Source of the DNA: Escherichia coli
GTDB lineage: Bacteria > Pseudomonadota > Gammaproteobacteria > Enterobacterales > Enterobacteriaceae
Direction: 5' to 3' (one strand)
DNA length: 64,000 bases
Assembly: GCF_001677475.2 (NCBI RefSeq)
Contig: NZ_CP012498.1
Position numbers: made by a program. Shown piece by piece: positions 1-3,000 of this stretch (position 1 is the stretch's first letter; each line of letters opens with the position of its first letter).

Positions 1-3000
1 AGCGCTTCGCAGTTACTGATCACTGCCGGGGACAATCCCCAACGGTTAAGAACCGAATCAGGTTTTGCGGCACTGTGTGGTGTCAGCCCGGTTCCCGTAT
101 CTTCAGGAAAAACGAACCGTTACCGACTTAACCGGGGTGGGGATCGTTCTGCAAATAGTGCACTTCACATCATCGCTATCGGACGTTTACGAACTGACGA
201 TAAAACCAAGGAATATGTCGCCAGGAGAGTAGCCGAAGGACATACAAAAATGGAAGCAATACGCTGTCTGAAGCGCTATATCTCACGCGAAGTTTATACA
301 TTACTACGAAATCAAAACAGGCATGTTAACAGCATCCCGATAACGTCTTGACTCTTAGAAGGGCGTCCAGGGCAGTCATTATACGAGCAGGCAGTTCCGG
401 CAGTTATTGTGGCGATACCAGATCAGGCAGAGTATGAGCCAGCGCGGAAACTGCTGGGATAACAGCCCAATGGAACGCTTCTTCAGGAGTCTGAAGAACG
501 AATGGATACCGGTGGTGGGTTACGTAAGCTTCAGCGAGGCAGCTCACGCCATAACGGACTATATCGTTGGATATTACAGCGCACTAAGACCGCACGAATA
601 TAACGGTGGGTTACCCCCAAACGAATCGGAAAATCGATACTGGAAAAACTCTAACGCGGTGGCCAGTTTTTGTTGACCACTTCAGGTCTGGGTGGCAGAT
701 ATAACGTATGTTGCCACCCGGGAAGGATGGCTGTATATCGCTGGCGTCAAAGATGTTTATACGAGCGAAATTGTCGGTTACGCCATGGGAGAGCGCATGA
801 CGAAAGAGTTGACGGGTAAAGCCCTGTTTATGGTGCTCAGGAACCAGCGCCCACCTGCCGGGATAATCCACCACTCCGATCGTGGTTCACAGTACTGCGC
901 ATACGATTACAGGGCCATACAGGAGCAGTTTGGTCTGAAAACATCAATGTCGCGTAAAGGTAACTGTTACGACAACGCTTCGATGGAAAGCTTCTGGGGA
1001 ACACTGAAAAATGAAAGTCTGAGCCACTATCGTTTTAAGAGCCGGGATGAGGCCATCTCAGTAATACGGGAATACATTGAGATTTTCTACAATCGTCAGC
1101 GTCGTCACTCTCGTCTGGGGAATATCTCCCCGGCAGCCTTCAGGATAAAATATTATCAGATGGCTGCTTAGAAAAAGAACAAATGGTGGTGTCCGCTATT
1201 GCCAGTACACCTCAGCCTTGCAAACAGGGATGTGTTCATCTAGAGAATGTAGAAGCCAAATTTTAACTAATTGTGCACATTTTAAAGAGGAGTGCACAAT
1301 TGGTTAAAATTATTTAGAAAGATAACTTATTATTAATTTTATATCCTTGGATACTGAGGGGTATAAAAGGATGTTAAAAAATAATGGCATTTTATTTCGT
1401 TGGGAAAATTGCTGAGTATCTGCCAGTATTTAAAACATTAAATCTAAAAACAAAATGGGTTAAAAAGTTTAATGCTAATTGTTATAATTAGTGCGGTAGC
1501 TATTTAAAAATGGTAGAGATATTGACCTCCTAAATTTATTGATGATATGAAACTTGCGTTTTATTCTCATGATACGATGGGGCTTGGGCATTTACGGCGA
1601 AATCTTTTGCTTGCAGGAGCAGTTCAGAAAAGGTTTTCTGATACTGAAATTTTGATTATTAACAGTGCCCGTGAATCCGGATTATTTACACTACCTGACC
1701 GTTCAGATATTCTTACGTTACCAGCCTATGCCAAAACGTTGTGCGGCAAATATCACCCCCGGTCACTGGGCAATGATACCCGGAAATTGGTTAGCCTTCG
1801 GAGACAGATAATTCGAGCTGCATTGAGTGAATATTGTCCGGATGTAATGGTTGTGGATAATGTACCTGCTGGGGTGTTATCAGAACTGCTGCCGGTGCTT
1901 CCGGAATTGGTTGATGATAATGTGCATCTGATTCTTGGACTCAGGGATATTATTGATGAACCATCAGTTGTTCGTCATCAATGGCATGCTGCAGATAATT
2001 ATACGATTGTCCGTCAGTATTATTCTGATATATGGATTTATGGCGATCGTTCATTCTATGATTTGTCGCTTGATCTTGCTCCGGAACCATCAGTATACCG
2101 AAAAATCAGTTTTCTTGGATATCCGGATGTTCCATTATCTCCATCGGTGTTACAGGATGAGCAATTTCAGTCTCTGATTTCTCGTCCATTCGTATTATGT
2201 CTTACAGGGGGAGGGCAGGATGGCTACCACCTTGCATCTGTATTTGCAGAGACATTGTTACCGCCAGGGATGGACGGTGTTATTCTTACCGGTAGCCAGA
2301 TGGCTCGGGAGGAAGTGACATCATTACAGCGTATTGCGTCCATGCGTAATGATTTACATATTATTCGTTTTGTATCTGATCCTCTTTTTCTTCTACAGCA
2401 TACGCACAGCGTAGTGGCAATGGGGGGATATAACACCTTACGGGAAATTCTTTCATTACGGAAACGGGCATTGATTATTCCCCGTATTGTTCCTCGTCTT
2501 GAGCAATGGATACGTGCTTCACGGATGGCAGAAAAGAATCTGGTTACATGTTTGCATCCGGACAGTCTGACGCCACAGTCAATAACTGATTGGCTGATTT
2601 CCGACTGGTGTCCTTCAGATCCACGACTTTACCTCAGTCTGAATGGGCTACATTCCTTTACAGAAAAAATGAACGCGATATTTACAGCGCGGAGAAAACA
2701 TAATTAAAATCAATGACATGGAGAGTGTAATGGATAATAAACACCCTTATGTCGGATATGTGGTTAAACGCTATCCCCGCTTTTCAGAAACATTTATTGT
2801 CAATGAAATTCTCGCTCATGAACGAGCCGGAATGAAGCTGGATATTTTCGCCCTTGGAGATGTTCAGGAGGCTTTTTTTCAGGAATCTATTTCCCGGGTA
2901 AAAGCACCGGTAACTCGTTTTAATTCTAGGCAATATAATGCTGAATATTATCATGATTTACTGCGCCGTTCTTTTCCGTTACTACCGGAACTTTCCGGAT

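Follow-up and report, generated by a model that had tools for sequence, protein, structure and literature searches.

Dispersed insertion sequence (IS) remnants are already well known on the virulence plasmids of enterohemorrhagic Escherichia coli (EHEC), enterotoxigenic E. coli (ETEC) and Shigella, where they are recognized as a theoretical source of rearrangement. EHEC plasmids of the pO157 type are mosaics of such remnants, in which IS911, a member of the IS3 family that was first described in Shigella dysenteriae, borders the enterohemolysin genes (ehx, or hly). Here we describe two pairs of repeats, one of IS911 and one of IS600-like (IS3 family) DNA, in a 64,000-nt stretch of E. coli DNA (assembly GCF_001677475.2, contig NZ_CP012498.1), which we refer to throughout as the window. 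The window is part of a large IncF virulence plasmid, mosaic and IS-laden, that is a hybrid of the Shiga toxin-producing E. coli (STEC) and ETEC types, and both repeat pairs are, very probably, non-functional scars of old IS3-family transposition on this plasmid.

The locus resembles the described systems in several respects. As in the pO157-type plasmids, IS911 borders ehx. The IS911 pieces share with IS911 the C-terminus of orfB and the tip of the right inverted repeat, with the orfB stop codon inside that repeat, and the IS600-like pieces share the OrfB C-terminal region with IS600 of Shigella and are 92.6-95% identical to annotated IS600-family copies, although both are fragments here. The nested arrangement of IS911 in IS600 is also found in an E. 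coli chromosome (JSWP006), with its junction 33 bp from one described here. Neither of the two IS911 copies is a complete, transposition-competent element. The arms of the two repeat pairs are as follows.

498-684, plus strand: left arm of the direct repeat, comprising those bases of the left IS911 segment that have a counterpart in the right stump
45161-45347, plus strand: right arm of the direct repeat, a 187-bp IS911 3' stump
1135-1189, plus strand: left arm of the inverted repeat, within an IS600-like fragment
63946-64000, minus strand: right arm of the inverted repeat, a second IS600-like fragment that runs off the window end

When the window was compared with itself by BLAST, the two arms of the direct repeat (498-684 and 45161-45347) aligned over 187 bp at 98.9% identity, with two mismatches and no gaps, and with a longest perfect block of 153 bp (509-661 and 45172-45324). 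Similarity stops sharply at 684/45347, where the right inverted repeat of IS911 has its tip (...GGCCAGTTTTTGTTGACCACTTCA), and the flanks beyond this point are wholly divergent. A first, sequence-only reading of the window had reported that the IS911 3' end occurs twice, in direct orientation and nearly identical form; this is borne out, with the starts corrected from 495 to 498 and from 45160 to 45161. The exact inverted repeat that it reported is also real, but the left arm had been placed 2-4 nt away, at 1137-1193: it is 1135-1189 that equals the reverse complement of 63946-64000, over 55 bp and without mismatch. This length is a lower bound, as the right arm is cut by the window end at 64000. 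Given their length and identity, a chance match is excluded for both pairs. By length, the direct pair ranks 12th and the inverted pair 21st of the 23 repeat pairs detected in the self-comparison.

The left arms of both pairs lie in a nest of three insertion sequences at the left end of the window, which has the following components.

1-367, plus strand: the 3' 367 bp of ISEc21, an IS110-family RNA-guided insertion sequence of 1374 bp when whole
368-684, plus strand: IS911 3' segment, which covers the C-terminal codons of orfB, its stop codon (674-676) and the tip of the right inverted repeat, ...CCACTTCA, at 684
685-1214, plus strand: IS600-like (IS3 family) 3' fragment of 530 bp, with an orfB remnant at 692-1171 and the right inverted repeat tip ...ACACCTCA at 1214

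Over its 317 bp, the IS911 segment shares 98.7% identity with an unbroken copy of IS911 from a plasmid of S. dysenteriae ATCC 9752. Its coding part (368-676) matches NCBIfam NF033516 (IS3 family transposase; 7e-30) at profile positions 283-368 of 369 and comprises the last ~100 residues of OrfB, and the homologue in the related plasmid pOkiPb01695_1 is labelled "IS3-like element IS911 family transposase" by the Prokaryotic Genome Annotation Pipeline (PGAP). Read as its reverse complement, the tip (TGAAGTGGTCAACAAAAACTGGCC) matches the published right inverted repeat of IS911. For the IS600-like fragment, the orfB remnant matches the same profile at 4e-59; copies that are ~95% identical to 685-1214 are annotated "IS600 family transposase", and the copy on the S. 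dysenteriae plasmid is 92.6% identical. Because the intact right end of IS911 abuts IS600-like interior DNA at 684|685, IS911 had inserted into the IS600-like element, and this landing was the first step in the formation of the left copies.

ISEc21 then accounts for the other end of the IS911 segment. Positions 1-345 encode the C-terminus of its transposase, followed by a stop codon at 346-348; the assignment is based on NCBIfam NF033542 (IS110 family RNA-guided transposase; 8e-18), and homologous copies with 95% identity are named "ISEc21 family transposase" by PGAP. Two draft E. coli contigs (L011 and L012) are 100% identical to 1-12707, reach further upstream and end in repeats, and in the draft contigs the remainder of ISEc21 is found there, preceded by the 5' part of IS911. 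In draft contig L010, this 5' part is 98.8% identical to the S. dysenteriae copy and runs on with it across the point of insertion. ISEc21 sits precisely between ...CACAGCGAT and CAGGGCAGTC..., where it separates the HSD|QGS codons of IS911 orfB without target duplication, and it interrupts the left IS911 within the catalytic motif; the left junction of ISEc21 is located at about 112|113 in L011. Since the draft contigs show the IS911 5' part before ISEc21, the left IS911 is half of a split element and not the remnant of a deletion. It had been identified correctly as IS911 3' DNA and is, more exactly, the 3' half of an IS911 split by ISEc21 at 367|368 rather than a plain truncated remnant. 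Within the window, the left IS911 lacks orfA, the frameshift site and the left inverted repeat.

ISEc21 is known to insert into transposase genes of the IS3 family under seekRNA guidance (Siddiquee et al. 2024, PMC11187229), and the insertion junctions described here fit the published seekRNA target. The example targets in that paper are ISCfr6, ISEc92 and ISEc93, whereas the target here is IS911 itself. The ISEc21-type 3' end occurs in 608 records among 5,426 complete E. coli genomes, and the majority of those sampled run into the same IS3-family sequence. In plasmid A of E. coli S56, the left flank of ISEc21 derives from a different IS3-family element than the right flank.

The right IS911 copy is a stump, truncated on its 5' side at 45160|45161 but with an intact right inverted repeat tip at 45347, where it differs from the tip at 684 (...GGCCAGTTTTTGTTGACCACTTCA) by one substitution (GACC for GGCC). 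It encodes the same last 56 OrfB residues as the left copy (open reading frame 45169-45339), is 100% identical over 187 bp to the left copy of pOkiPb01695_1, and lies 350 bp upstream of ehxC (45697). It is what is left of a second IS911 upstream of the ehx operon, which lost all but its last 187 bp. An IS911-type element is also located directly upstream of hlyC/ehxC in pO157 Sakai, but it is 87.7% and 86.6% identical to the two copies here, and the distance between the IS911 junction and the conserved block upstream of ehxC is 46 bp here versus 220 bp in pO157. With this identity (87%) and the other distance from the ehxC-upstream block, we rejected the possibility that the two plasmids share the same IS911 insertion. 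The plasmids themselves also differ, as pO157 is 92 kb in size and the host plasmid here, a hybrid, measures at least 140-240 kb and carries STa enterotoxin genes and metabolic cargo. On an O8:H28 plasmid (CP076705), the end of an IS2 lies within about 4 bp of the IS911 junction at 45347|45348. IS junctions thus recur at the upstream edge of the ehx module, with IS911 here, the IS2 of the O8:H28 plasmid and the other IS911 copy of pO157. A consensus scan found no hybrid promoter at the IS911 right ends (45336-45370 and 673-710). An outward IS911 promoter for ehxC or for the glycosyltransferase genes on the left was considered and rejected; the best candidate upstream of ehxC (45489-45518) lies in DNA common to relatives without the stump.

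At the right edge of the window, the IS600-like copy begins at the position equivalent to 1189, and the last 25 bp of the element, with the right inverted repeat, are missing. What had been described as an inverted IS3-family end is thus IS3-family DNA, of the IS600-like type, but is not an IS end, as it begins 25 bp internal to one. The counterpart in pOkiPb01695_1 is 508 bp long (4928-5435 of its extracted locus, L006), is 97.4% identical to 707-1214 of the window, and is located 2.15 kb farther from the shared flank than the right-edge copy. At 63945|63946, the window is without 2.15 kb of pOkiPb01695_1 that contain a hypothetical gene and a gene for an SdiA-regulated domain, and it was through this 2.15-kb deletion that the right-edge copy lost its terminal 25 bp. 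To the left of 63945|63946 lie an IS630-family end fragment (63811-63895) and an IS629-like 5' fragment (63731-63810). Farther left, at 62435-63663, is a 1229-bp IS3-family element with TGAATCGCC... termini and a 3-bp GGT duplication; the corresponding site in pOkiPb01695_1 is empty, and the element is probably a clean, recent insertion. Some relatives that match the right-end open reading frames diverge from the window at 62246.

Neither repeat pair is able to transpose, because both lack a functional pair of ends and have destroyed transposase genes, which leaves homologous recombination as the sole route by which they could act. On the interpretation of the repeats as scars, the shared homology (187 bp for the direct pair and at least 55 bp for the inverted pair) would be a passive by-product of the insertions. 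The principal alternative, which we consider unlikely, is that the repeats are active recombination substrates and that the source population is mixed, with some plasmids carrying a 44.7-kb deletion, an inversion of at least 62.7 kb, or both. The comparison with related plasmids bears directly on this alternative. These relatives are IncFIA/FIB plasmids of 138-242 kb that are 98-99% identical to the window block by block, and include p1RM9088, the large plasmids of GB089, 09-00049 and 08-00022 (pCFSAN004179G), plasmids of Okinawan bovine isolates, and three "Escherichia sp." plasmids.

The sets compared were PLSDB (72,556 plasmids) and the 5,426 complete E. coli genomes, neither of which contains the window itself. 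We used a chimeric query in which IS911 368-684 is joined to 45348-46000, for which a match that starts before query position 131 (query_from <131) would mark a hybrid of the deletion type. All 16 complete E. coli plasmids that carry the right stump have it with the same truncation point (query_from 131-134) and the same flanks, and the truncation and flanks are likewise unchanged in eight PLSDB records, four of which overlap those 16. No ehxC-proximal IS911 that reaches 5' of 498 was found among the complete E. coli genomes searched, no one-piece match to 498-1400 (the reciprocal junction) was found in either set, and no PLSDB record matches 45161-46000 without the 44600-45160 flank. The right flank of the IS911|IS600-like junction is kept in every relative that has the junction. 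Both IS911 fragments occur in direct orientation in 13 E. coli plasmids, at separations of 35.8-43.1 kb, and in three Escherichia sp. plasmids, at about 22-24 kb. The sequence-only reading had proposed that the repeats could mediate deletion of a ~44-kb interval or inversion of a ~62-kb interval; this is physically plausible, given the perfect blocks of 153 and 55 bp, but none of the predicted junctions is present in these two collections. Judged by these sequences, the pattern suggests that there has been no recombination between the flagged repeats on the timescale sampled.

Several points weigh against the view that the repeats are inert, and most of them also favor active recombination. 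The orientations are as claimed, and the perfect blocks (153 and 55 bp) clearly surpass ~25 bp, the minimal efficient processing segment in E. coli (PMC1904282). Because both blocks exceed this length, rare RecA-dependent exchange is expected in principle, at a low rate that is beyond what finished consensus assemblies exclude. The inverted homology could reach past the window end and, by analogy with pOkiPb01695_1, amount to at most about 483 bp in all (equivalent to 707-1189). The left IS911 piece amounts to just 123 bp (562-684) in most relatives, whose stability is therefore less informative on the longer homology present here. The plasmid family is also plastic, and its members differ by inversions and by insertions and deletions: in pOkiPb01695_1 the IS911 pieces are mutually inverted and the IS600-like pieces are direct, and in pCFSAN004179G an 18-kb block (1238-19601, containing the polysaccharide and fdn genes) is inverted. 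Finally, no replication gene was seen between the IS911 arms, and a plasmid that had lost this interval would therefore still replicate.

The breakpoints that are seen, however, map elsewhere. The inversion in pCFSAN004179G is bounded by an IS630-family element at CTAG 1236-1239 and by an inverted duplicate of 19602-20663, and the insertions particular to this lineage are ISEc10 (22260-24668) and the IS3-family elements at 40362-41617 and 62435-63663. That the breakpoints are elsewhere follows from the flagged fragments, which keep their parental flanks in every case. A crossover within the flagged repeats was also rejected as the source of the orientation difference in pOkiPb01695_1, where all four fragments have parental flanks, and because an exchange between inverted copies would not yield direct repeats. 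The first of these two IS3-family elements (minus strand; also delimited as 40366-41624) is apparently complete, with orfA at 41240-41551 and orfB at 40374-41120, and is ~67% identical to IS911 and inverted in orientation. It is absent at this site in pCFSAN004179G, and the left flank of ISEc21 in S56 plasmid A resembles it by eye.

What an exchange would do depends on the DNA between and around the arms, in which the main features are the following.

1547-11737: polysaccharide/ABC-transporter (ATP-binding cassette) cluster of eight genes, conserved in the plasmid family
12629-17225, minus strand: fdnGHI, conserved across the plasmid family
20406-21887 and 42420-43902, plus strand: 1.49-kb direct repeat carrying the STa genes, with its copies 22 kb apart
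21232-21465, minus strand: STa gene 1, in repeat copy 20406-21887
43243-43476, minus strand: STa gene 2, identical to the first, in repeat copy 42420-43902
25346-26690 and 38813-40168: 1.36-kb inverted repeat that brackets the gentisate cluster
28864-34889: gentisate/3-hydroxybenzoate cluster
37215-37762, plus strand: type II toxin-antitoxin pair (YacA-like antitoxin and ParE-family toxin), within the 44-kb interval
45697-52820, plus strand: ehxCABD enterohemolysin operon, from the annotation (PGAP, PLSDB) of relatives that are 98.5-99% identical

RecA-dependent crossing-over between the direct arms would excise a non-replicating circle of 44,663 bp that contains the polysaccharide cluster, fdnGHI, the gentisate cluster, both STa genes and the toxin-antitoxin pair, and exchange between the inverted arms would invert 62.7 kb or more and leave every gene intact. 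Only accessory cargo and IS DNA make up the 44.7-kb interval that the IS911 arms enclose, and no replication gene was seen in it by open reading frame, Pfam and NCBIfam scans or in the annotation of relatives. Larger repeats with longer perfect identity compete with the flagged pairs. The 1.49-kb direct repeat, with perfect blocks of 496 and 367 bp, is a much stronger deletion substrate than the IS911 pair. The 1.36-kb inverted repeat is AT-rich (36% GC) and 95.7% identical between its copies, contains perfect blocks that reach 179 bp, and has no annotation in relatives. Toxin-antitoxin modules are known to penalize cells that lose them, and loss of the interval would also remove the ParE-type pair, so that deletants should be penalized; the toxin matches Pfam PF05016 (ParE_toxin) at 1.6e-16, and yacA and RelE/ParE are annotated in pOkiPb01695_1 at 99.8% identity. 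We therefore judge exchange between the flagged repeats to be marginal, on account of the longer repeats nearby, the loss of the toxin-antitoxin pair and the conserved arrangement in relatives, and infer that such events are infrequent, and either counter-selected or out-competed.

A further alternative, which we regard as improbable, is that the two IS911 copies bound a composite transposon of ~47 kb, which delivered the cargo or could still move it; its outer ends would be the left copy's left inverted repeat, at a point before the window begins, and the right inverted repeat at 45347. In favor of this, the DNA between the two direct IS911 copies is purely accessory, the stump retains an intact right inverted repeat at 45347, the draft contigs have the 5' part of the left copy upstream of ISEc21, and in pO157, too, an IS911 precedes hlyC. 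The window and the draft contigs, however, reach neither the left inverted repeat nor any target duplication (L010 and L011 both end before them). The left copy of most relatives is the 123-bp stump, which is without a left inverted repeat, and between the copies the cargo ranges from ~22 to 43 kb. The right end of the left copy abuts IS600-like interior DNA at 684, as expected of a simple nested insertion, and the cargo is itself a patchwork of separate IS-bounded modules. There is little likelihood that the left IS911 retains an intact left inverted repeat and that the ~47-kb unit can be excised or moved as one module, whether by the transposase of another IS911 copy or by RecA through the 187-bp repeat; if so, the module would explain how the ETEC and metabolic traits joined the ehx plasmid.

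Least probable of all, to the point of being negligible, is an assembly artefact, in the form of repeat-induced misjoins or a duplicated consensus: IS-rich plasmids are prone to misassembly, and the IS600-like fragment is a place within which draft contigs of this lineage end, but each repeat copy has its own unique flanks, which recur in many independently finished plasmids, and 100%-identical draft contigs read through 1-12707.

The interpretation of both pairs as scars is set in a window with at least 19 scattered IS elements or fragments. Among the cargo, the polysaccharide cluster (1547-11737) encodes a GT28-like and two GT4 glycosyltransferases, an ABC transporter, two APH-like kinases, an alginate-export-family porin and a nucleotide-sugar dehydrogenase. 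The plasmid-borne fdnG (14175-17225, minus strand) is an uninterrupted frame of 1016 codons with Cys in the motif ARLCHGPTVA, at the position of the selenocysteine in the chromosomal FdnG of E. coli. IS21-family elements are located between fdnGHI and the STa region. Both STa genes are of the porcine type (...NTFYCCELCCNPACAGCY), and relatives have one or two sta1 copies. The window also contains the plasmid maintenance genes ccdAB and genes for an integrase, a ParA-like protein and ParM/StbB.

For the biology of this plasmid family, what is at stake between the IS911 arms is the hybrid character itself, as loss of the 44-kb interval would turn an STEC/ETEC hybrid plasmid, with ehx and two STa genes, into a plasmid with ehx only. 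The comparison of relatives suggests that such loss is absent on the timescale sampled. In practice, the IS fragments described here are points at which short-read assemblies of this plasmid family will break.

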